Below are positions 21,024-54,046 of a stretch of DNA of 64,000 nucleotides, one piece after another (positions within the stretch are counted from its first letter, which is position 1; each line of letters starts with the position of its first letter). This DNA comes from Gemmatimonadota bacterium (GTDB lineage Bacteria > Gemmatimonadota > Gemmatimonadetes > Palauibacterales > Palauibacteraceae), in assembly GCA_022825725.1 (NCBI GenBank), contig JAJDWE010000055.1:28919-92918 (forward strand), in the 5' to 3' direction. The notes below the pieces were generated by a model, which worked only from the letters and a program-made list of their open reading frames with translations, had not been told where the DNA came from and did not search any database. Position numbers and translations under genes: made by a program.

Positions 21024-22385
21024 TCAGGGTTGCGGCTGGTCGAGCCTCCGGCCGAGGAGGGCCTCGATTCCCGCGAGCGCCGCCTCGTACTGGAACCGGC
21101 CGCTGACGAGATCGACCTCCGCCTGCGTGAGCGTGATCTGCGCGTCCTGGAGTTCGAGGATGGTGGCGAGGCCGAGCTGGTACCGCTCCTGCACGACCCG
21201 GAGGCTCTCCTCGCTGAGTTCGACGTTCCGCTCTGCGAGATCCACCCCCGCGAGCGCGGACTGGGCCGTCGCGTAGCGCGCGTCGAGCAGTGAACTGATG
21301 TTCAGTCGCGCCGCCCGTTCGGATTGCCGGGCCTGGTCCGCCGAGGCCCGGGCGCGGAACACCTGGGTCTCGCGCTGGAAACCGTTGAAGAGGGGATAGC
21401 TGCCGCGAAGCGAAAAGGACCAGGAGCGGTTGGAGGGAGGGAACTCCTGGTTCGCCCAGCCGTAGCCCGCGCCGACCGTAATCGACGGCAGGTAGCTGGA
21501 GCGCGCGCTCGACACCGCCGCCTCGGCGGCCTCGACGGCCGCGGAGGCGGCCTGCAGCGCTGGAGCCGTCACATCGGCCATCGCGAACAGTTCGTCACGC
21601 GTGAAGGGGATCGCGGCCATCGCGAGTTCCGCCTCGGCGGTCGGCCCCACGAGGGTTTCGGAGCCGACGACCTCGGTGAGTTCGAAGGTCCGCGTGCGTG
21701 CGTTGTTCTCCGCGTTCAGAAGCGCGAGTTGCGCGTTGTTGAGGTCCACCTGCGAGCGGAGGGAGTCCGAGCGCGTCGCCCGTCCCAGCTCCAGCTGCTG
21801 CCTGACGAACTCGAGCTGGTCCGCCTGCCGCTGGACGCGGCGTTCCTCGACGGCGACGAGTTCACGTGCCGCGACGTTCGCCGAGTACGCCTGTTTCACC
21901 GCCTGGATGACCTGGAACTCGGCCTCGCGATAGCGGGCGTTCTGTTCGACGATTCCCAGACGGGCGCCCTTCAGGTCCGTGAACCGGCTCCAGCCGTTGA
22001 AGAGCGTGTATCCGGCGTTGATCTGAGTGGAGTAGCTCGTGGCGACGATCCCCTGGCTGAGGGCGTCGAGCCGTCCCGTCGATGAGTTCGAATAACCGAA
22101 GCTCATGTTGACTGACGGGAGGAGCTGGCCGATCGCGCTCAACTGGTTGTGCTCGGCCATCTCGATCTGCGAGTAGGCCTGGAGCAGCTGAGGGTTGCGG
22201 CGCAGCGCGATCTCGACCGCTTCATCGACCGTGATCTGGCGGACGTTGTCGCTCGCCTGCACCTGCGCCTCGGCCATCCGGGGCGACGCTCCCGCCAGCA
22301 GGATCGCCGGCAGCAGGACAAACCCCCATCGACGAAGACCGGCGCTCGGCCGGCCTCCGCACCCTGATCTATGTCGAATGGTCAT
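21024..22385 (-). CDS. TolC-family outer-membrane efflux protein
   Basis: 454 aa from the ATG at 22385 (MTIRHRS..., verified, GAGGAAAC SD). Signal peptide ending AEAQ, then the two-repeat TolC architecture with α-helical coiled-coil segments. The upstream 49 aa of the annotated ORF are non-homologous. Confidence 0.8.
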   Translation of the reverse strand: MTIRHRSGCGGRPSAGLRRWGFVLLPAILLAGASPRMAEAQVQASDNVRQITVDEAVEIALRRNPQLLQAYSQIEMAEHNQLSAIGQLLPSVNMSFGYSNSSTGRLDALSQGIVATSYSTQINAGYTLFNGWSRFTDLKGARLGIVEQNARYREAEFQVIQAVKQAYSANVAARELVAVEERRVQRQADQLEFVRQQLELGRATRSDSLRSQVDLNNAQLALLNAENNARTRTFELTEVVGSETLVGPTAEAELAMAAIPFTRDELFAMADVTAPALQAASAAVEAAEAAVSSARSSYLPSITVGAGYGWANQEFPPSNRSWSFSLRGSYPLFNGFQRETQVFRARASADQARQSERAARLNISSLLDARYATAQSALAGVDLAERNVELSEESLRVVQERYQLGLATILELQDAQITLTQAEVDLVSGRFQYEAALAGIEALLGRRLDQPQP

Positions 22386-22428
22386 CGTTTCCTCGCCCCC
22401 TGAGGGGCTGATTGACGTCTCTCGGTTG

Positions 22429-22890
22429 TCAGTTGTTTCGCTGCGGGTCGTCACGCCCTTGGGACCCCCGTTCGCCGCCGCGCTCCCGCCCGTCGCCGTA
22501 GCGCTGCCGCAGCAACTGCCGATAATCCTCACCCTGCTCCTCCGTCAGCGCCGACTCGATCTGCGTCCGGACCGAATCCATCAACGTCCGGTAGCTCCCG
22601 CGCAACGTCCGCATCCCGTCGCGGTAGTGATCGAGGAAGCCCTCGATCTGTGACCGTTGCTCGGCAGTCAAACCCAGTTCATCGGCGAATTGCTCGATCG
22701 TGGTCTGCCGTCCCCGCGACCCGTCATCGCGATCCCGCGTTTCGGGAGACGTAGTCTCCGCTGGCGGCTCGCCCACGGCTGCGTCGGCGAACAGATCGAG
22801 GCGGTCCGCCGCCACGCCGACTGCGGCGCCCGCCGCGAAGACGAGCGTCAGGAGCAGGATCGCCCGGAATCTCGAAGTGTCCATACGCAC
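22429..22890 (-). CDS. periplasmic LTXXQ-motif protein, CpxP/Spy/ZraP family
   Basis: Signal peptide (FRAILLLTLVFAAGAAVGVAA), two LTXXQ motifs (LGLTAEQRSQIEGFL, ALTEEQGEDYRQLL) and a charged C-terminal tail. It sits directly downstream of the sigma/anti-sigma pair. Confidence 0.65.
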   Translation of the reverse strand: MRMDTSRFRAILLLTLVFAAGAAVGVAADRLDLFADAAVGEPPAETTSPETRDRDDGSRGRQTTIEQFADELGLTAEQRSQIEGFLDHYRDGMRTLRGSYRTLMDSVRTQIESALTEEQGEDYRQLLRQRYGDGRERGGERGSQGRDDPQRNN

Positions 22891-22915
22891 CCGGTTCGTG
22901 TCGCGTTTCAGCGAG

Positions 22916-23359
22916 TTACGGATTGATGAGCGCGGCCGTCAGCACCGCGTCGCGGCTCGGTTCGACGAGGTCGATGAGCAGCGCGGGCGGGGCTTCGGCG
23001 TCCGGTGCCAGCGAACGCACCAGCCCGATCGGCTCCGGATCCACGTCCGCGGCGAGCGCGGGCGCATCCGGCAGGGAGATGCGATACAGCAGAACGCCGG
23101 CCGCGACGAGCAAACCCGCGGCCAGCGGCGCGAGCGCCGCGGACCAGCTTGCGGTCACGTCGAGCCAGGAGAGAGGCCGCCGCTCGAACAGCGCCTCCGC
23201 CGCAGCCATCACGCTCTGGCGCAGGCGGCGGCGCGTGACGTCATCGGGCCGCAGGGGCTCGAGATACTCGGCCCACGCGGGCCCGCGCCCGCCGTCCCGA
23301 TTCTGATCTCTCCTATTCGTCCTCATCTGTTCCTCCGGCGCCCGAGGCGGGCGCGTCAC
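22916..23359 (-). CDS. putative membrane-anchored anti-sigma factor
   Basis: Overlaps the 3' end of the ECF sigma gene by 47 nt. Charged N-terminus, single TM (ALAPLAAGLLVAAGVLLY) and a short periplasmic tail. Confidence 0.55.
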   Translation of the reverse strand: MTRPPRAPEEQMRTNRRDQNRDGGRGPAWAEYLEPLRPDDVTRRRLRQSVMAAAEALFERRPLSWLDVTASWSAALAPLAAGLLVAAGVLLYRISLPDAPALAADVDPEPIGLVRSLAPDAEAPPALLIDLVEPSRDAVLTAALINP

Positions 23360-23972
23360 CGAGAAGCCGGCGCAGCGCGTGCCTGCCGTGATGAAGGTTC
23401 GCCCTCGAAGTTCCGACTGCGATCCCGAGAATCTTCGCGATCTCCGCGTGGTCGTACCCTTCGAGGTCGTACATCATGACTGCCGTTCTCTGTCGTTCCG
23501 GAAGCTGCCCGAGTGCGTCGAGCACCCGCTTCCGTGCGTGTCTCCGCTCGAATTCACGATGCGGATCGTCCCGCGACGCCGCCGTGTCCGTCAGCTCCGA
23601 ATGCGTCCGCAGAAGCTCACGCCGCCGGAGGTTCAGGCACGTGCTCCGCAGCACGCGATAGAACCACGGACCGAAACGGCTTCCCGGCCGCAACTGCCCG
23701 ATCCGCTCAAGGGCGCGAATGAACGCGGCCTGCACCGCGTCTTCCGCGTCCTGCTCGTGGCGAAGAATCGACAGCGCCACCGCGTAGGCCGGGTCCGTGT
23801 ATCTCGTCACGAACAGGGAAAACGCCCGCGAATCGCCGGCCTGCACGGCCTCCACGAGGCCGGGCTCGTCCGCGCCGGGATCCGGCCGCTCCGCAGGTCC
23901 GGAGCCGGGGCCGGTCGCGTCGCCCGGCGATCCGTTACGCGTTCGCGTTTCCTCCGCCAAAGGCATCCCCAT
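23313..23972 (-). CDS. ECF (group IV) RNA polymerase sigma-70 factor
   Basis: Region 2 (FSLFVTRYTDPAYAVALSILRHEQDAEDAVQAAFIRA) and region 4 HTH (ERQRTAVMMYDLEGYDHAEIAKILGIAVGTSRANLHHGRHALRRLL). Confidence 0.8.
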   Translation of the reverse strand: MGMPLAEETRTRNGSPGDATGPGSGPAERPDPGADEPGLVEAVQAGDSRAFSLFVTRYTDPAYAVALSILRHEQDAEDAVQAAFIRALERIGQLRPGSRFGPWFYRVLRSTCLNLRRRELLRTHSELTDTAASRDDPHREFERRHARKRVLDALGQLPERQRTAVMMYDLEGYDHAEIAKILGIAVGTSRANLHHGRHALRRLLGDAPASGAGGTDEDE

Positions 23973-27476: not shown

Positions 27477-28592
27477 TCAGTCGCGCGCGCGCCGGATCTT
27501 CCATCGGTCCACCACGCGCCGCCCCCGCACGACCTCGAAATGATCGAAGTGCGCGACTGTGAGGCAGGCGTGATTCGGAAGGACGCGGACCTGCTCGCCC
27601 ACGGCGAACCGCCCGGACAGGCGCCCGTGTTCCTGGCTCACGGAGTTCACCCGATGGTCGCTCAGCTCCCGTCCGGACGTGTCGCGGAAGAGGCGGCCGT
27701 AGTGAGGCGGATCGTCCGGTCCCACGTCCTTGGACAAGGCGAGCGCGCCGCAGTCCGCGATCGCCCCGCCGGATCCTTCGCGCGCCGAAACGACCGTCGC
27801 GAGCACCGTGACCGCGCAGTCGCGCACCGCGCAGGACCCCAGCCGCGTCTGGGTGTAATCGTAGAGCGCGTAGTTTCCCGGCCGGGCCTCGTCGATCCCC
27901 TCCAGCGTCTCGACCCGGCTCATCCCCGGCGTCGAACCGAGCGAGAGCACCCCCGGTTCGAGCCCCGCCGCGCGGAGCGCGCGTCCTACCTCGACCATCG
28001 CCCGTCGCTCCTCCTCCGCCAGCGCGGCGATGGCGGCCGACGAACCCGCTCCGTAGGTGTGGCCGGCGTGCGTGAGGCAGCCGCGCAGCGCGAGCCGCCC
28101 CGCGCGTGAGATCCGCCTCGCGATCTCGACGACCCGGCCGCTGTCCTGCGGGACGCCGGAGCGTCCGTAGCCACAGTCGATTTCGAGCCACACCGGGAAG
28201 GAAACGCCCGCGGCTTCGAGCGCCTCGACGGCCGTGAGGGAGTCCACCGTCACGCCGAGTTCGACGCGCCGGGAGAGCGCGGCCGCCTCGCCGATCCGTG
28301 AGAGATTGAGGGGAAAGGCCCACAGGATGTCGTCGAAGCCCGCCTCCGCGAAGATCCGGGCCTCCGCGAGCGTGGAAACGGCGATGCCCGAGGCGCCGCG
28401 CGATCGCTGGCGTTCGGCGATCTCCACGCATTTGTGCGTCTTCACGTGGGGGCGAAGCCGAACGCCGAGGGCGTCCGTGCGTTCCTGCATGACCCGGAGG
28501 TTGTTCTCCAGGACATCGAGATCGAGGATAAGCGCCGGAGTGCGGAGATCGGACAGGTCCGGCGCGTGGGTGGCAGCGTTCCCGGCGTTCAC
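27477..28592 (-). CDS. PLP-dependent alanine-racemase-fold enzyme, DSD1-family (D-serine dehydratase-like / D-threonine aldolase-like)
   Basis: TPALILDLDVLENNLRVM...RPHVKTHKC gives the PLP-lysine motif of the fold-type III DSD1 family. A C-terminal β-domain is present. Confidence 0.7.
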   Translation of the reverse strand: MNAGNAATHAPDLSDLRTPALILDLDVLENNLRVMQERTDALGVRLRPHVKTHKCVEIAERQRSRGASGIAVSTLAEARIFAEAGFDDILWAFPLNLSRIGEAAALSRRVELGVTVDSLTAVEALEAAGVSFPVWLEIDCGYGRSGVPQDSGRVVEIARRISRAGRLALRGCLTHAGHTYGAGSSAAIAALAEEERRAMVEVGRALRAAGLEPGVLSLGSTPGMSRVETLEGIDEARPGNYALYDYTQTRLGSCAVRDCAVTVLATVVSAREGSGGAIADCGALALSKDVGPDDPPHYGRLFRDTSGRELSDHRVNSVSQEHGRLSGRFAVGEQVRVLPNHACLTVAHFDHFEVVRGRRVVDRWKIRRARD

Positions 28593-28766
28593 GTCTCAAA
28601 GGTAGTTGGGGGATCACCGTTCCGCTAAGTTGCGAAGAGGGTTGCGGGCCGATGGCGGGTCGAGTGACCGCAAAGCCGTAGAGGTCGTCTTATTCACGAA
28701 GAGAAGATCTTTCGGATCGGGCCGGAGGGTCGGGTTCCGGACGATGAACCGAGCGACGCGGATGTC

Positions 28767-29282
28767 GTGACCGCCGTAATCGAAGGCGATCGCGAGGCGT
28801 ACGGGGTTCTCGTGCGCCGGTACAAGGACGTGCTGTACCGCTACGCGGAGCGCATGACCGGGCGCGCGGACGACGCCGCGGATATCGTGCAGCGCACGTT
28901 CATTCGCGGCTTTCGGAGCCTCGACCGCTGCCGCGACCGGGAACGGGTGGGAGGCTGGTTGTTTCGAATCGCCGTCAACCTGTGCAAGGATCAGTTGAAG
29001 GGGCGGGCACGGCGGGAGGTGTCGCTGGAGGCGGCCGGCCCGCTGACGGCGACGCGGGGTCTTCCCGAGGCGCGCGCCGAACGGGCGGAAATACGGGAAC
29101 AGATATACCGGGCCTTGCAGTCGCTGAGCGAAGAACAGCGTGAAGCTTTCGTCCTCAAGCACGTCGAGGGCTGGTCGTACGAAGAGATGGCTGAGAGACT
29201 TGGAGCGTCGGTGTCCGCGTTGAAGATGCGCGTCCATCGGGCTCGGGATCAGTTACAGGTGCTGTTAGAGAACTACCGATGA
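28767..29282 (+). CDS. ECF RNA polymerase sigma-70 factor (GTG start)
   Basis: Region 2 (YGVLVRRYKDVLYRYAERMTGRADDAADIVQRTFIRGFRSL) and region 4 (EEQREAFVLKHVEGWSYEEMAERLGASVSALKMRVHRARDQL). The stop overlaps the downstream anti-sigma start (ATGA at 29279-29282). Confidence 0.8.
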   Translation: MTAVIEGDREAYGVLVRRYKDVLYRYAERMTGRADDAADIVQRTFIRGFRSLDRCRDRERVGGWLFRIAVNLCKDQLKGRARREVSLEAAGPLTATRGLPEARAERAEIREQIYRALQSLSEEQREAFVLKHVEGWSYEEMAERLGASVSALKMRVHRARDQLQVLLENYR

Positions 29283-29920
29283 ACGACGATCTGAAGCTGT
29301 ACCTGGATGGAGAAATCGACCGTTCGGAGCTCTCGCGGGAGTTTCGCAGGGAAGCCGAGCGGTGGGATGCCCTCCTTTCGGACGTGCGGGATTCGGGGGT
29401 GCAGGGAGCTCCGGTCGGACTCGAGTCGAGGGTCATGGCCGAGGTTCGCCAGGAGAGGCGCCGGCCCTTGCCGAGTCTCGTGGACTGGTGGGTGCATCCC
29501 CGCTCCGTGCGCGTCCGGCCGTGGCTGGGACTCGCGGCTGCCGCCGTGCTTGCAACGTTCTTCCTCTTGCCGCGGGAGAACGTATACACCGAGCCGGCGG
29601 GGGCGGCGACGGCGCTCGTGGGTGAAGAAGTCCACTACGTGCAGTTCCGTTTCGAGGCGCCCGGCGCGGCGTCGGTCCACGTTGCGGGCGACTTCAACGA
29701 CTGGCAGCCGGAGGTCGCCCTGGCCGATCCCTACGGGACCGGCGTGTGGACCGGTCGGGTGAAGCTCCCGCCCGGCGTGCACAAGTACATGTTCCTCGTG
29801 GACGGCGAGACCTGGATCACGGATCCGCACGCGGAACGTTATGTGGAGGACGGTTACGGCAACCAGAATGCCGTGATCGCCATCACGGGCGGCGCGGGCG
29901 CCCGCTCGCTGGCCCCCTAG
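29279..29920 (+). CDS. anti-sigma factor with a C-terminal CBM48 / AMPK-β glycogen-binding-like module
   Basis: The N-terminal anti-sigma helix region (MNDDLKLYLDGEIDRSELSREFRREAERW) is translationally coupled to the sigma gene. Single TM (WLGLAAAAVLATFFLL). The C-terminus VHYVQFRFEAPGAASVHVAGDFNDWQPEVAL...GVWTGRVKLPPGVHKYMFLVDGETWITDPHA matches the AMPK1_CBM/CBM48 β-sandwich consensus. Confidence 0.7.
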   Translation: MNDDLKLYLDGEIDRSELSREFRREAERWDALLSDVRDSGVQGAPVGLESRVMAEVRQERRRPLPSLVDWWVHPRSVRVRPWLGLAAAAVLATFFLLPRENVYTEPAGAATALVGEEVHYVQFRFEAPGAASVHVAGDFNDWQPEVALADPYGTGVWTGRVKLPPGVHKYMFLVDGETWITDPHAERYVEDGYGNQNAVIAITGGAGARSLAP

Positions 29921-29936
29921 CCAGAGCAGGCAGCCC

Positions 29937-30674
29937 GTGGCAAAAGCCCTGTGGCGCCGTTCTCCCGCGGCCGTGTGCCTCGGCGCCATCCTGCTCGGGC
30001 TCGCGATGCCGCTTGCGGGTCAGGACACGCGCGCGCGCTTCAGCCGTCATCTGGGCGCGGTCTACGCGGCGCGTACCCTTTCCGTCATAGAGGCGGGTGT
30101 GCAGGACGGTCTGCCCCGAGGTCTCCTGATCGACAAGGCCATGGAGGGCGTGGCGAAGGGGATGTCTCCGGAGGTCGTCCTCGCCGCGGTCGACACCTTC
30201 GCCGCGGAGTTGCGGGATGCGGCGTCCGTCGTCGGTCCGGGGGCGGCGCCGATCGCGCTCGAGAAAGCCGCGGATGCCCTTCGCCGCGGCGTGGGGCGCG
30301 AGCTTCTGATGCGGCTGGGACGTGATCGCGCCGATTTTGCTCTCCTGGTCGTCTCCCTCGAGGAGTTGCTGGACGCCGGCGTGGAAAGGGGTCTGGCCGA
30401 AGATCTCCTGCGCTACGCGGTGGCCGAGGAGTTCGACAGCGACGCGGTCCTCCGACTGCCCGCCAGCGTGAAACTGCTCATTCGGGAGTGCGGCGATGGT
30501 CAGCCCGACTCCTGCTGGTCGCAGGCGAGCATGAGGGAGTGCGCCCGCGTGATGCCGACGCGGCCGTGTCCGACTCGAACGCTTGCGGATGCGGCCCGCT
30601 CGGCCGCGGCGCGGCTCCTGCTCGCCCGTTCCCCGCCTCCCCGCAGCCTGCGGACGTCTGCGACACCGGGCTAG
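29937..30674 (+). CDS. hypothetical secreted protein, third gene of the sigma/anti-sigma operon
   Basis: Signal peptide (AAVCLGAILLGLAMPLAG), an Ala/Leu-rich helical body and a low-complexity C-terminus. It starts 17 nt after the anti-sigma stop. Confidence 0.45.
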   Translation: MAKALWRRSPAAVCLGAILLGLAMPLAGQDTRARFSRHLGAVYAARTLSVIEAGVQDGLPRGLLIDKAMEGVAKGMSPEVVLAAVDTFAAELRDAASVVGPGAAPIALEKAADALRRGVGRELLMRLGRDRADFALLVVSLEELLDAGVERGLAEDLLRYAVAEEFDSDAVLRLPASVKLLIRECGDGQPDSCWSQASMRECARVMPTRPCPTRTLADAARSAAARLLLARSPPPRSLRTSATPG

Positions 30675-30789
30675 CACCCTTCCCGGTCTCTGCCGTATAC
30701 TCTCGGACTTTCCGGCGGCCGAGCCCGCCGACGCAGGGTTTTGCCATGGGCGCTGGCCCACGGATCTCACCCGCGGATCTTGCCCACGG

Positions 30790-31872
30790 ATGATGGAGAG
30801 GGCCTTGGCAGCCAGAGTGACCGCGGCGGTCACGGGTACCGGGAGCTACCTGCCGCCGGACAGCATCGACAACTTCCAGCTTCTCGGCATGGGCACGCTG
30901 CGCGAGTCGTTCGATGTCGGGCAGGCGCGGTCCGCGCTCAGGGGTGTCGAGGGTGCCAACGGGCTGTCGGCCCCCGAGGTCTTCGATCAGTGGGCGTACC
31001 AGTTGACCGGCATCCGGTCGCGCCGGCGGATCCCGCCGGAGAGCGACCTGACGACGGAGGACATGTGTGCCCGGGCGGGGCTCGCCGCGCTGGAGGCGGC
31101 CGGACGCGAGCCGGACGAGATCGATCAGCTCTACGTCGCGACCGTGTCGCCCTCCGACGAAGTTCCGAACAGTGCCTGTACCGTGGCGACGAAGATCGGG
31201 AATCCACGATTGGGAGGATTCGCGATCAACGCGGCGTGCGCCGGCTTCGTGTACGGCGTGGGGGCGGCCTGGTCGGCGATCGTCAGCGGTATGGCGGAGC
31301 GGGTCCTGGTGGTTTCGGGCGACGCCCTCACGCGGCTCGTGGACTACACGGACGTGCGGACGGCCGTGCTCTTCGGCGACGGCGCCGGGGCGGTCGTGCT
31401 GGAGCGGAGCGAAACGGACCACGGCGTGCTCGGCCCAATGGTGGCGTCCGGCTGGTTCGCGCGCGACCCGCTGTACCTCGTCGGGCAGAGCTGGCGGGAC
31501 GATCGGGACCGGATCCCCATTCTCCACATGGAAGGCGGGCCGAGGATCGTCCGCAACGCGATCGTCAAGATGGCCGAAGTGGGCGATCAGGCGCTTCAAA
31601 AGGCGGGTCTCGACTGGTCCCACGTGGATTTCGTGATTCCTCACCAGGCGAACGCGCGGATCACGCAGGGCCTCGAGCAGAGGCTGGAACTCCCGAAAGG
31701 GCGCGTCGTCCACAACATCGTCGACTACGGCAACATGTCCGCCTCGACCGTCGCCGTGACGCTCGATGAGGTTGTCCGCGGAAAGCACGGACCCGTGCCG
31801 GATCCGGCCACGATCGTGCTCACCTCTATCGGCGGCGGCTACACGATGGCGGCGGCGGTCGTCCGCATCTGA
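30790..31872 (+). CDS. fabH: 3-oxoacyl-[ACP] synthase III (KAS III, FabH-like)
   Basis: Active-site Cys region (FAINAACAGFVYGV), His region (DFVIPHQANARI) and Asn region (HNIVDYGNMSASTVAV). The ATG at 30790 was verified. 360 aa. Confidence 0.8.
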   Translation: MMERALAARVTAAVTGTGSYLPPDSIDNFQLLGMGTLRESFDVGQARSALRGVEGANGLSAPEVFDQWAYQLTGIRSRRRIPPESDLTTEDMCARAGLAALEAAGREPDEIDQLYVATVSPSDEVPNSACTVATKIGNPRLGGFAINAACAGFVYGVGAAWSAIVSGMAERVLVVSGDALTRLVDYTDVRTAVLFGDGAGAVVLERSETDHGVLGPMVASGWFARDPLYLVGQSWRDDRDRIPILHMEGGPRIVRNAIVKMAEVGDQALQKAGLDWSHVDFVIPHQANARITQGLEQRLELPKGRVVHNIVDYGNMSASTVAVTLDEVVRGKHGPVPDPATIVLTSIGGGYTMAAAVVRI

Positions 31873-50431: not shown

Positions 50432-53400
50432 GTGGACGCCCGGCCGCGCGTGACCCCCCGGAGCAGCGTCGACTACGTCGAACTGCACGCGCACTCCGCC
50501 TACTCCTTTCTCGATGGGGCGTCGCGGCCGGAGGAACTCGCGGCGCGCGCGCTCGAACTGGACTATCCCGCGCTCGCGCTCACCGACCACGACGGGCTCT
50601 ACGGCTCGATGGAGTTCGCGCAGTTCGCCCGCGCCCACGGACTCCAGCCGATCACGGGCGCCGAACTCACCCTCGCCTCGCCGTTCGCCGCCGGAGACGT
50701 TCCCGCGGGAACGTCCGGAGGCTGCGCGCCGGCGGGACGGGCGGCGGAAACGGCCGACTGCCACGTCACGGTGCTGGCGGAGAGCGCGGCGGGATACGCG
50801 AACCTGTGCCGGCTCATCACCCGGGCGCACATGGAGAGTCCGCGCGGGGAACCCCGGCTCGACCTCGACGCGCTCCTCGAGCGGCCCGAGGGACTCATCC
50901 TCCTCACGGGGTGCCGCCGGAGTCCCCTTCTCACGGCGCTCGAACGGGGGACGGACGAAGCCGAGCGACTGGCGGGCCGCCTGCGCGACGCCTTCGGTCC
51001 CGGCAGCCTCTTCGTCGAACTCCAGAACAACGCGGTCCACGGCGACCTCGCGCGCGGCCGGGCGCTGAGCGCGCTGGCCGACCGGCTCCGCATCCCGGTC
51101 GTGGCCACGGGCAACGTCCACTACCACGTCGCCGACCGGCACCGTCTCCAGGACATCCTGGTCGCGATCCGGAACCGGACGACGGTCGACGATTCGCACG
51201 ACCTCCGCCGCCCCAACGCCTGCTTCCATCTCGCCTCGCCCCGGGAGATGGCGTGGCGCTTCGCGTCGCGGCCCGACGCGCTCCGCAACACGCGCGCGAT
51301 CGCCGAGCGCTGCCGGGCGTTCGATCTCACGGCCGATCTCGGCTACCGCTTCCCCGATTTCAAGGGGAGCGGCTTCGCCCCCGCCATGCGCGTACTCCAC
51401 CAGGTCTGCCACAGAGCGTTCGAGGTCCGCTACCCCCCCGGCAGCCGATACCGCCGCGAAGCCGAGGAACGGCTCGCCACCGAACTCGCGCTCGTCGACC
51501 GCCATGACCTGGCCGGGTTCTTCCTCGTCTATCACGACATCCTCGAACTCGCCCGGGAGGTCGCGCACCGCGTGCGGGGCGACTCGATGCCGCGCCAACT
51601 GCTCCCCCCCGGCCGCGGTCGCGGGTCCTCGGTCTCCTCCATCATCTGTTATCTGATCGGACTCTCCCACGTGGATCCGGTGCGGACGAACCTCTTTCTC
51701 GGCCGGTTCCTGAACGACGCCATGGAGAGCGTCCCGGACATCGACATCGACTTTGCGCGCGATATTCGCGAGGAACTGATCCTCGCGGTCTACGAGTGCT
51801 ACGGGTACGACCACGTCGGGCTCGTGTGCACCTTCCCCACCTACCGCACGCGCTCGATCGTGCGCGAACTGGGCAAGGCGCTCAGCCTCCCGGTCGGCGA
51901 CGTGGAAAAGCTGGCCAAGCTCGCCGAACCCGGAGAGGACGGGTTCATGGCCGAACTCGAGCGCATTCCCGGCCTCGAGGCGCGCGCGAACTCGCGGATC
52001 TGGCGGGCCTTCGCCGAACTGGCCGAGGAGATCAAGGGGCTCCCGCGGCACATCTCCCAGCATGTGGGCGGGATGATCATCTCGAGCCGGCCGCTGGTGG
52101 AGATCGTCCCGCTCGAGCCCGCCGCGTGGGAGGGGCGCGTCCTCTGCCAGTGGGACAAGGACTCCTGCGACGATGCGAGGTTCATCAAGATCGACTTTCT
52201 CGCGCTCGGAATGCTGTCGCTCGTCGAGGAGGCGGTGGAGACGATCCACGCGCGCCACGGCGAGGCCCCCGACCTCTCCCGCATCGACTACGAGGACGAG
52301 AGGATCTACGACCGCATCTGTTCGGGGGACACGGTGGGCCTCTTCCAGGTCGAGAGTCGCGCGCAGATCCAGATGCTGCGGCGGGTGCGGCCCCGGAACC
52401 TGGGCGACCTCGCGGTCCAGGTCGCGATCGTCCGGCCGGGTCCGATCGTCGGCGGGGCGGTCAACCCCTACGTCCGGCGGCGCGAGCAGCTGCGCAGGGA
52501 CCCGGACTATGTCGTCCCCTACGACCATCCGCTGCTCGAGGAAGTGCTCGGCGAGACGCTGGGCGTGATCATCTTCCAGGACCAGGTGCTGCAGGTGTGC
52601 AAGGCGCTCGCGGGCTTCAGCGACGGGCAGGCCGAGGGACTGCGGCGCGCCATGAGCCGCAAGCGCTCGCGCGAGGCGCTGCTGGGGTACTGGACGACGT
52701 TCCGGGACGGCGCGGCGGCGAAGGGGGTCGGCGGCCCCACGGCGAAGAAAGTGTTCGAGCAGGTCGTCGCGTTCTCGGAATTCGGGTTCCCGAAGTCGCA
52801 CGCGGTGGCGTTCGGGCTCCTCGCCTTCCAGTCCGCCTGGCTCCGCGACCGCTACCCGGCCGAGTACTACGTGGGGCTCTTCAACAACCAGCCGATGGGG
52901 TTCTATTCACTCGACGCGATCGGGCGCGACGCGCGCCGGCACGGGGTCGGCGTCCTGCTGCCGGATCTGAACGTCAGCCGGGTCGCCTGCACCGCCGAGG
53001 GGGACGATGTCCGGATCGGGCTCGGCATGGTCCGCGACTGGGGGACGGAGGCGGCCGAACTCGTGGTGGCCGAGCGCGAGCGCGGCGGACCGTTCGCGTC
53101 GCTGCCCGACTTTCTGCGCCGCACCCCGGCCGCGCTCAAGCGGGCCGCGATCGAGAACCTGATCTGGGTCGGGGGGCTCGACTCGCTGGGGATCGAACGC
53201 CGCGACCTGCTGTGGCAGACGGGGCTCTGGCTGGGTCCGGAGGCCGAGACGGAGGCGGAGCGCCGACGCCGCGAACTCGCGACGAACGCCGCGGGGCTGG
53301 GCGGGGACGCGTCGCCCGTCCGCGGACGGCGAAGCGCCGACCGCTCGGACCAGGGCCAGATCGAACTCGCGCTCGACGACCCCTGTGCGGATCTGCGGTT

Positions 53401-54046
53401 CGCGGGCACGCACGACATGGAGAAGATGATCGCGGAGTACCGCATCCTCTCCCTCGCCGCCTCGCTCCATCATCCGTTCGCGCTCGTGGGGGACCACCTG
53501 CCCGAGCGCACGGTCTCCTCGGCGCGCTTCCCCGATCTCCCCAACGGGAGCCGGGTCCGAGCGGCGGGGATCGTGGTGGCCCGCCAGCGCCCGCACACGG
53601 CCCGTGGATACATCTTCATCCTCATGGAGGACGAGTTCGGACCCATCAACGCGATCGTGAGGCCCGAGGTCTATCGGGAGTGTCGCGCCGCGATCCGCCT
53701 CGAACCCTTCCTCTACATCGATGGCGCGCTTCAGAAGGACGGCGCGACGTACAACGTGCTCGCCGAGGGGGTGTATCCCCTGCGCCTGAGTCCCGAACTC
53801 CGGCTGAGTCGCGAGACGGTCCCCGCCGTGGAGGGAGAGGCGGACACCGCGCCTGCTCCAATCGACCTGGACCCGGAGCCGGATCCTCTGACCCCCGCCC
53901 CGAACCGGATTCCGGCCGGCCATCGGATCGCGGCTGCGACCAACCGGAATCGGCTCGCCGAGCCGGATCCGTTCGCATATCTGGAAGCGCTGAGACGCGA
54001 CCCGCCCCCCACCATGAGCTGGGGCCGCGGCGGCGGCTGCCGTTGA
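50432..54046 (+). CDS. dnaE2: error-prone DNA polymerase DnaE2 (ImuC)
   Basis: PHP domain (VELHAHSAYSFLDGASRPEEL...ALTDHDGLYG), Pol III α core (ISQHVGGMIISS, PDIDIDF) and an OB domain. 1204 aa. Confidence 0.9.
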   Translation: MDARPRVTPRSSVDYVELHAHSAYSFLDGASRPEELAARALELDYPALALTDHDGLYGSMEFAQFARAHGLQPITGAELTLASPFAAGDVPAGTSGGCAPAGRAAETADCHVTVLAESAAGYANLCRLITRAHMESPRGEPRLDLDALLERPEGLILLTGCRRSPLLTALERGTDEAERLAGRLRDAFGPGSLFVELQNNAVHGDLARGRALSALADRLRIPVVATGNVHYHVADRHRLQDILVAIRNRTTVDDSHDLRRPNACFHLASPREMAWRFASRPDALRNTRAIAERCRAFDLTADLGYRFPDFKGSGFAPAMRVLHQVCHRAFEVRYPPGSRYRREAEERLATELALVDRHDLAGFFLVYHDILELAREVAHRVRGDSMPRQLLPPGRGRGSSVSSIICYLIGLSHVDPVRTNLFLGRFLNDAMESVPDIDIDFARDIREELILAVYECYGYDHVGLVCTFPTYRTRSIVRELGKALSLPVGDVEKLAKLAEPGEDGFMAELERIPGLEARANSRIWRAFAELAEEIKGLPRHISQHVGGMIISSRPLVEIVPLEPAAWEGRVLCQWDKDSCDDARFIKIDFLALGMLSLVEEAVETIHARHGEAPDLSRIDYEDERIYDRICSGDTVGLFQVESRAQIQMLRRVRPRNLGDLAVQVAIVRPGPIVGGAVNPYVRRREQLRRDPDYVVPYDHPLLEEVLGETLGVIIFQDQVLQVCKALAGFSDGQAEGLRRAMSRKRSREALLGYWTTFRDGAAAKGVGGPTAKKVFEQVVAFSEFGFPKSHAVAFGLLAFQSAWLRDRYPAEYYVGLFNNQPMGFYSLDAIGRDARRHGVGVLLPDLNVSRVACTAEGDDVRIGLGMVRDWGTEAAELVVAERERGGPFASLPDFLRRTPAALKRAAIENLIWVGGLDSLGIERRDLLWQTGLWLGPEAETEAERRRRELATNAAGLGGDASPVRGRRSADRSDQGQIELALDDPCADLRFAGTHDMEKMIAEYRILSLAASLHHPFALVGDHLPERTVSSARFPDLPNGSRVRAAGIVVARQRPHTARGYIFILMEDEFGPINAIVRPEVYRECRAAIRLEPFLYIDGALQKDGATYNVLAEGVYPLRLSPELRLSRETVPAVEGEADTAPAPIDLDPEPDPLTPAPNRIPAGHRIAAATNRNRLAEPDPFAYLEALRRDPPPTMSWGRGGGCR

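Follow-up and report, generated by a model that had tools for sequence, protein, structure and literature searches.

A predicted, phylum-wide ECF sigma/anti-sigma pair of the Gemmatimonadota with a periplasmic domain of CBM48 fold

Anti-sigma factors that carry a carbohydrate-binding end outside the cytoplasm are known from Clostridium (Acetivibrio) thermocellum, in which the single-pass RsgI proteins, ending in CBM3, PA14 or GH-like domains, sense extracellular polysaccharide and free SigI by proteolysis (PMC10328401, PMC4711584, PMC6852018). [quoted passage not shown] A further arrangement of interest is that of the proteobacterial σE system, RpoE-RseA-RseB, in which a sigma factor, a single-pass anti-sigma factor and a periplasmic protein are encoded in that order. 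Here a three-gene ECF sigma locus is described from a 64,000 nt stretch of Gemmatimonadota DNA (assembly GCA_022825725.1, contig JAJDWE010000055.1, positions 28,919-92,918 of the forward strand; hereafter the window) and is compared with these systems. All coordinates are window positions; L numbers denote fetched orthologous loci and P numbers library proteins. The region of the second gene is 100% identical to that of Candidatus Palauibacter sp. NZ_OZ253465.1, a member of a marine Gemmatimonadota lineage (PMC10469786).

The three genes lie on the + strand. Open reading frame 1 (ORF1; 28767..29282, 171 aa as the minimal frame) encodes an ECF (group 4) sigma factor, ORF2 (29279..29920, 213 aa) a predicted single-pass anti-sigma factor and ORF3 (29937..30674, 245 aa) a secreted all-α protein. 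It is very probable that ORF1 and ORF2 are an ECF sigma/anti-sigma pair in which the anti-sigma factor displays a CBM48-fold domain to the periplasm, and that this pair is conserved throughout the phylum. The three genes together are best explained as a self-activating signalling unit consisting of an ECF sigma factor, its single-pass anti-sigma factor and a secreted helical accessory protein. An earlier note on this DNA had read the locus as a translationally coupled sigma/anti-sigma pair followed by a gene for a secreted protein of no assignable function, and its structural details were all correct. The stop codon of ORF1 and the start codon of ORF2 overlap as ATGA at 29279-29282, as can be read directly in the sequence, and 16 nt separate the ORF2 stop from the ORF3 start. 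ORF1 matches the Pfam families Sigma70_r2 (61.8 bits) and Sigma70_r4_2 (68.5 bits) and the NCBIfam model TIGR02937 (sigma70-ECF; 108 bits, cut-off 42.9), and lies below the cut-off of every NCBIfam equivalog, the best being SigM (113.7 against 190).

The C-terminal part of ORF2 (aa 118-205; 29630..29893, + strand) is a β-sandwich of the carbohydrate-binding module family 48 (CBM48)/AMPK1_CBM type, the assignment made in the earlier note and now supported by Pfam, structure prediction and structure comparison. AMPK1_CBM was matched at residues 122-203 (E=1.8e-13; 50.9 bits, cut-off 26.8) and CBM_48 at residues 117-185 (28 bits, cut-off 22.4), and both models scored above cut-off in 117/117 members of the family. 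An AlphaFold2 (AF2) model, built on these 117 homologues, has the β-sandwich at residues 119-202 with a predicted local distance difference test score (pLDDT) of 90-96. When this was compared with known structures by Foldseek, the top hits were the CBMs of AMPK β1/β2 (probability 1.00; root-mean-square deviation, rmsd, 1.5-2.1 Å over ~85 residues), with SEX4 next; 1z0m_B gave a target template modelling (TM) score of 0.86 at 29% identity and rmsd ~2.1 Å. Membership of an unrelated Ig-like family with no carbohydrate-binding platform, which the earlier note had named as the outcome that would count against it, is thus not what was found: the fold is CBM48, and of the Trp/Lys/Asn platform both Trp residues and the Asn are kept, while the Lys is replaced by Met.

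In AMPK β1 the residues critical for sugar binding are W100, K126, W133 and N150, of which W100, W133 and N150 are surface positions that stack against the sugar (PMC4032982), and the mutations W100G and K126Q each abolish glycogen binding (PMC6274970). Equivalent positions were assigned by HMMER alignment to AMPK β2 (2f15) and counted over the 117 family members, as were all other family residue counts. W100 corresponds to W142 and W133 to W179 (both 117/117), N150 to N197 (116/117) and G147 to G194 (117/117); L146 is replaced by an aromatic residue at position 193 (F in 104, Y in 12 and L in 1 of the 117). As the equivalents of W100, W133 and N150 are conserved, it may be argued that the canonical binding face is functional; unless a ligand is bound there, an invariant exposed Trp/Trp/Asn face is difficult to account for. 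K126, the Lys that hydrogen-bonds the sugar, corresponds to M171 in 117/117 members. Among 42 representatives with the anti-sigma-like single-domain layout, Lys is found at this position in 0/42 (M 24, A 8, S 4, others), compared with 340/425 domain instances in related repeats of other secreted proteins, and the loss of Lys is therefore confined to the anti-sigma lineage and under selection. It weakens a literal glycogen-type reading and leaves sugar binding possible; it is not decisive, because AKINβ2, which has neither K126 nor N150, still bound starch in vitro (PMC4032982).

The related repeats came to light in a hidden Markov model (HMM) search of the full library. The secreted bacterial proteins P0151-P0299 (e.g. 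P0154, P0157, P0190 and P0183) are a large, unannotated set; they carry 2-18 CBM48-like modules in tandem, closely related to that of ORF2, and keep the Lys of a YKF motif. The C-terminal region of P0183 is rich in alternating Tyr/Asn/Ser strands.

The layout of ORF2 is that of a standard anti-sigma factor, and the cytoplasmic helical region, single transmembrane segment and C-terminal β-sandwich of the earlier description are borne out by the agreement of the AF2 model, hydrophobicity and flanking charges. The transmembrane helix (aa 79-97, VRPWLGLAAAAVLATFFLL; 29513..29569, + strand) is the best Kyte-Doolittle 19-mer and is modelled as a helix at 81-95 by AF2. It is Ala-rich, with a conserved LAAAAA run, an invariant P81 and A89 in at least 90% of members. 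Its N-terminal flank has five K/R and one D/E and its C-terminal flank one K/R and four D/E; by the positive-inside rule the N-terminus is therefore predicted to be cytoplasmic and the CBM periplasmic.

The putative cytoplasmic domain (aa 1-65; 29279..29473, + strand) is helical and resembles class I anti-sigma domains, with no zinc motif. It comprises three to four helices (3-9, 20-38 and 48-60 in the AF2 model, with pLDDT 82-86 over the first 30 residues and lower values afterwards), and LDGE and W29 are conserved in this part of the family. When the family profile was compared with the PDB, the only matches other than CBMs were two anti-sigma domains, both weak: the N-terminus of RseA (1or7_C, E=0.078, residues 2-63) and RsiW (5wuq_C, E=0.95, residues 6-63). 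The model NF052375 ('antisigma') scored 31 bits on ORF2, below its cut-off of 100, and weak N-terminal matches to zf-HC2 and DUF2275 were seen in 14/117 and 19/117 members. No HxxxCxxC and no Cys or His motif is present in aa 1-65 of ORF2. On the combined evidence of its adjacency to the sigma gene, the translational coupling, the standard layout and the weak RseA and RsiW matches, ORF2 is accepted as a class-I-like, non-zinc anti-sigma factor that would bind the ORF1 sigma factor.

The arrangement is widespread. When one genome was scanned for each species, a relative proved to be encoded in at least 503 species genomes, and 514 representative proteins passed E≤1e-30 in the HMM search of the full library. 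A protein search with ORF2 returned 352 proteins, and all 120 matches listed were ~200-225 aa long or fragments of such proteins. Database names among the matches listed include 'isoamylase early set domain-containing', 'glycogen-binding domain-containing' and 'glycoside hydrolase family 13'; none of them is named as an anti-sigma factor. In 80/80 fetched loci the CBM48 gene directly follows an ECF sigma gene, touching or overlapping it. The family appears to be mis-annotated and, so far as the searched literature goes, to be undescribed as anti-sigma factors: no paper was found there on an anti-sigma factor with a CBM48/AMPK1_CBM domain, nor any relevant work on ECF factors in Gemmatimonas, and the ECF re-classification paper, its supplement aside, does not mention CBM48. 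The earlier note had called this a sensor type seldom reported for anti-sigma factors; the sensing of polysaccharide through a CBM is known from RsgI/SigI. One full four-gene cluster of the kind described below, L050 (CAXMRU010000096.1), is labelled Akkermansiaceae and is arranged like the Gemmatimonadota locus L047; the label is probably a binning error in a metagenome-assembled genome.

A candidate self-promoter of ECF type lies upstream of the sigma gene at 28664..28693 (+ strand), with a -35 element GTGACC (28664-28669), a 16-nt spacer and a -10 element CGTCTTAT (28686-28693). The motif GTGAC(C/G)-N15-17-CGTC was present 5' of the sigma gene in 55/79 orthologous loci, and in 52 of these 55 the spacer is exactly 16 nt long. 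By its form, this conserved element, GTGAC(C/G)-N16-CGTC, is predicted to be a self-promoter of ECF type. The search for a regulon through the ECF motif, as suggested in the earlier note, yielded the self-promoter and, within the 64-kb window, no other accepted site. A second N16 match at 51505 (ATGACC...) is imperfect and lies inside a 1204-aa reading frame; it is probably due to chance and was rejected. A search of Rfam over 28550-30900 gave no match, and a scan for sigma-70 promoters and terminators gave nothing useful on the + strand. As no terminator-like site was seen between ORF3 and a FabH-like gene 115 nt downstream, it is possible that these two genes are co-transcribed.

The sigma gene itself seems to have no canonical start codon. 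From the in-frame TGA at 28665, which is within the -35 hexamer, to the GTG at 28767 there is no ATG, GTG or TTG. The GTG at 28767 is itself unlikely to be the true start and was rejected as such, since it is not kept in close relatives, being GTT or GTC in six of them (L010, L011, L018, L019, L021 and L022), and since the peptide encoded upstream is conserved. This peptide (...IGPEGRVPDDEPSDADVV) matches the N-terminal sequences of distant orthologues, such as MTGGASELSDGAVV in L023. In codons -17 to -1 before the GTG, variation is concentrated at the third codon position (10/8/17 variable columns by codon position, compared with 5/4/5 farther upstream). The sigma gene therefore probably starts upstream of 28767, with a probable N-terminal extension at 28707..28766 (+ strand) and a non-canonical ATC, i.e. 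an AUC codon, as the candidate start. The in-frame ATC at 28716 is preceded by GAGAAG, and that at 28707 is the other candidate; in the same upstream region an ATT of L013 and L014 corresponds to ATG in L015. Counting the extension, the sigma factor would be ~188 aa long. At either length it consists of the σ2 and σ4 domains only and has no C-terminal extension or further regulatory domain.

ORF3, which the earlier note had described as a secreted protein of no known function, does have a signal peptide (aa 1-28; 29937-30020, + strand; n-region KxxxRR, a hydrophobic core and LAG|QD) and no Pfam or NCBIfam match. The A-x-A/G|Q site was found in every ORF3 homologue checked, and the +1 Gln is invariant. 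AF2 predicts an all-α protein of 12 helices (pLDDT 90.1, predicted TM score 0.77). No match to a PDB sequence was found, and comparison of the fold with the PDB gave no significant match, the best (E=0.1) being to designed repeats. A homologue of ORF3 lies downstream in 64/65 of the loci with more than 2.5 kb of flanking sequence.

In the Palauibacter clade the C-terminal region of ORF3 (aa ~188-245; 30500-30674) has four conserved Cys residues (RECG.GQP.SCWS...RECAR...CPT) and is modelled by AF2 as two confident helices; in other clades a Pro/Gly/Lys-rich tail takes its place.

Outside the Palauibacter clade a fourth gene is often present. In ~45/80 loci, none of them from that clade, an extra gene lies between those for the anti-sigma factor and ORF3 (e.g. 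6649..7779 in L058, encoding 376 aa with a signal peptide). Its product has ~280 Gly/Ala/Leu-rich N-terminal residues followed by a C-terminal AMPK1_CBM domain (42.9 bits; E=8.4e-10 to 1z0n), in which the position of K126 is an invariant Gly (Gly339). From its composition the protein might be guessed to be an outer-membrane β-barrel, and this stays a guess because a PDB profile search with the N-terminal 280 residues gave no match. Neither a second CBM48 gene nor a homologue of the extra gene was found when the window was searched. The anti-sigma factor of the window ends in a conserved, clade-specific tail, GGAGARSLAP (29888..29917, + strand). The tail, GGAGA(R/G)SLAP, is present in 23/23 of the qualifying loci that have neither the extra gene nor the proline motif PVPPGS in ORF3 (L001-L022 and L039) and is missing from all loci with the extra gene; PVPPGS occurs in ORF3 of 24/32 four-gene loci. 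Absence of the extra gene, presence of the tail and absence of PVPPGS thus co-vary perfectly over 23 loci. Such co-variation suggests direct contacts among the periplasmic components.

Of the known systems, RsgI/SigI may be regarded as the closest functional analogue of this locus, both having a single-pass anti-sigma factor with a carbohydrate-binding domain at its extracytoplasmic end. The two differ in several ways. SigI is not an ECF sigma factor, and the SigI/RsgI complex is of a distinct type (PMC6582324). RsgI has an N-terminal domain of its own and an autoproteolytic periplasmic domain (SEAL-type), neither of which was detected in ORF2: a Pfam scan at E≤1 found no RsgI or SEA-like family, and the CBM follows the membrane helix after only ~20 residues. 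RsgI/SigI is a Gram-positive system for which no CBM48 has been reported, whereas the present one is from a diderm, with an anti-sigma factor of 213 aa whose CBM is without the key Lys. ORF2 is not, therefore, a member of the RsgI family, its sigma factor being of ECF type and the RsgI-specific domains being absent. Equally, since RsgI/SigI is already known, the principle of sensing through a CBM is not new.

With RpoE-RseA-RseB the locus shares its gene order, a weak N-terminal similarity of the anti-sigma factor to RseA, a putative self-promoter and an Ala-rich membrane segment that may be suited to site-2 cleavage. RseA and RsiW expose Ala-rich C-termini, which act as degradation tags, after site-2 cleavage. 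Because the membrane segment of ORF2 recalls those of RseA and RsiW, release of the sigma factor by regulated proteolysis is proposed here as well. On the periplasmic side, however, the two systems are unrelated. The periplasmic domain of RseA is unstructured and is not a CBM, in contrast to the CBM48 fold of ORF2. RseB is a β-rich protein, and ORF3, which is all-α and unmatched in Pfam and NCBIfam, differs from RseB/MucB in this respect; nothing like DegS or the logic of outer-membrane-protein peptides is evident here. The FecR-type systems resemble the locus in that an ECF system is tied to a carbohydrate-binding domain, but they use a TonB-dependent transducer and a FecR domain, and no FecR, SusC or TonB-dependent element is present here. 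The CBMs of AMPK β and SEX4 are of the same Pfam family and fold as that of ORF2, in which the equivalents of W100, W133, N150 and G147 are conserved; ORF2 differs in having an invariant Met for K126, and its CBM is periplasmic and fused to an anti-sigma factor rather than to a kinase scaffold or phosphatase.

The reading tentatively preferred, at a little under an even chance, is that of a self-activating ECF module in which the CBM48 domain senses a periplasmic or envelope glycan. In the resting state the cytoplasmic helical domain of the anti-sigma factor (aa 1-65) would hold the sigma factor. The periplasmic domain (aa 118-205) would be the sensor, binding the glycan through its Trp142/Trp179/Asn197 face; as Met invariably takes the place of the key Lys, recognition would be unlike glycogen binding of the AMPK type, and the ligand might be something other than an α-1,4-glucan. 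Altered occupancy of the sensor would open the anti-sigma factor to regulated proteolysis via its Ala-rich membrane helix, and the freed sigma factor would transcribe from GTGACC-N16-CGTCTTAT to give more sigma factor, anti-sigma factor and ORF3. ORF3, in the position that rseB has in rpoE-rseA-rseB, would act as a periplasmic modulator of the sensor domain. Several observations weigh against this reading. The equivalent of K126 is invariably Met, and K126Q abolishes the binding of glycogen by AMPK β1. No gene for glucan metabolism or sugar uptake is conserved nearby or found within ±8 kb of two loci; one of these loci is flanked by a D-serine dehydratase-like gene, KAS III and MoeA, the other by transporters of the RND and MacB types. 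We know of no classical periplasmic α-glucan in the Gemmatimonadota. The promoter-motif scan of the 64-kb window gave no second regulon promoter, and no protease was found in the window. Over the N-terminal 65 residues all Pfam and NCBIfam anti-sigma models stay below their cut-offs, so that the anti-sigma class of this domain is a prediction from sub-threshold profile matches and genomic context. Finally, the co-variation of tail, extra gene and ORF3 points to protein-protein contacts at least as much as to sugar.

This last point leads to a different role for the fold, that of a protein-interaction module with ORF3 as its docking partner, joined in other clades by the CBM48 domain of the second secreted and possibly outer-membrane protein. 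The parts would then make up a relay that spans the envelope and reports the state of the envelope or outer membrane to the sigma factor. Such docking is a serious possibility, if on the whole an improbable one. It would account for the co-conservation of ORF3 (64/65 loci), for the addition of a ~376-aa secreted protein with a second AMPK1_CBM in ~45/80 loci, for the absence of the Lys from both families (Met in the anti-sigma factor, Gly339 in the extra protein), for the perfect tracking of extra-gene loss with the GGAGARSLAP tail and an altered ORF3 C-terminus, and for the want of sugar genes nearby. An invariant surface Trp/Trp/Asn is, however, the hallmark of a sugar platform, the N-terminal 280 residues of the extra protein have no detectable homologue and its outer-membrane site is guessed from composition, and the extra gene is missing from the window. 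A bolder form of the idea, which we consider rather unlikely, has the CBM48 domains as coupling elements, not glucan sensors, of an unrecognised envelope relay of the Gemmatimonadota made up of the anti-sigma factor, a secreted and possibly outer-membrane CBM48 protein and a helical protein of new fold. It would be a counterpart of FecA/FecR built from different parts, with Palauibacter having a reduced version in which the C-terminal tail replaces the lost partner. The proposal of the earlier note, literal gating by an α-1,4/α-1,6-glucan or malto-oligosaccharide as in AMPK β and SEX4, with the system switched on by the products of periplasmic starch or glycogen breakdown, has in its favour that the best sequence and fold matches (AMPK β, SEX4, GlgB and pullulanase) are all α-glucan binders, that the Trp/Trp/Asn platform and the Gly are conserved and that AKINβ2 manages without K126 and N150. 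It is nevertheless quite unlikely: the K126 position, Lys in most of the related bacterial repeats, is invariant Met, K126Q abolishes AMPK β1 binding, no amylase, maltodextrin-transport or glg gene was found among the conserved neighbours or up to 8 kb to either side of two loci, and the operon itself is the only regulon visible in the 64-kb window. With the Lys lost and no glucan or sugar gene conserved nearby, α-glucan gating is a suggestion drawn from the fold and only partly supported, and another glycan or a protein as partner would be about equally likely. That ORF2 might be no anti-sigma factor at all, merely a membrane-anchored CBM48 protein sharing an operon with an ECF sigma factor regulated in some other way, would fit the lack of an anti-sigma model at cut-off and of the HxxxCxxC zinc motif. 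This is highly improbable, given that in 80/80 loci its gene adjoins the sigma gene or overlaps with it, that the PDB profile matches outside the CBM are limited to the anti-sigma domains of RseA and RsiW and fall at the right position, that the order of cytoplasmic helical domain, membrane helix and outside sensor is the standard one, and that the sigma factor (171-188 aa) has no C-terminal extension or regulatory domain of its own.

A few other features of the window may be recorded. A second ECF sigma locus lies ~5 kb upstream on the - strand (22429-23972). It encodes a sigma factor (23313..23972, 219 aa), a likely anti-sigma factor with one hydrophobic helix (22916..23359, 147 aa) and a secreted protein with LTAEQR-type helices (22429..22890, 153 aa), and it is followed by a gene for a TolC-like outer-membrane protein (21024..22532). 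The 1204-aa reading frame at 50432-54046, within which the rejected promoter match at 51505 lies, has PHP and polymerase-type motifs and, judged from its translation, looks like an error-prone DNA polymerase of the DnaE2 type.

The locus extends a well-understood principle of regulation by a small step and does not amount to a new one. With it, the sensor domains known from ECF signalling would come to include a module of CBM48 fold, and the invariant exchange of Lys for Met on an otherwise intact sugar platform offers a clean test case for the evolution either of CBM48 specificity or of a switch to protein binding. The promoter motif GTGACC-N16-CGTC is defined, and the three-gene cassette could be reconstructed in another host. 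Proteins now called 'isoamylase early set domain-containing' or 'glycoside hydrolase family 13' would become anti-sigma factors in the genomes of at least 503 Gemmatimonadota species. The Gemmatimonadota are largely uncultured and their signal transduction is almost unstudied, and the cassette may provide a point of entry to it.

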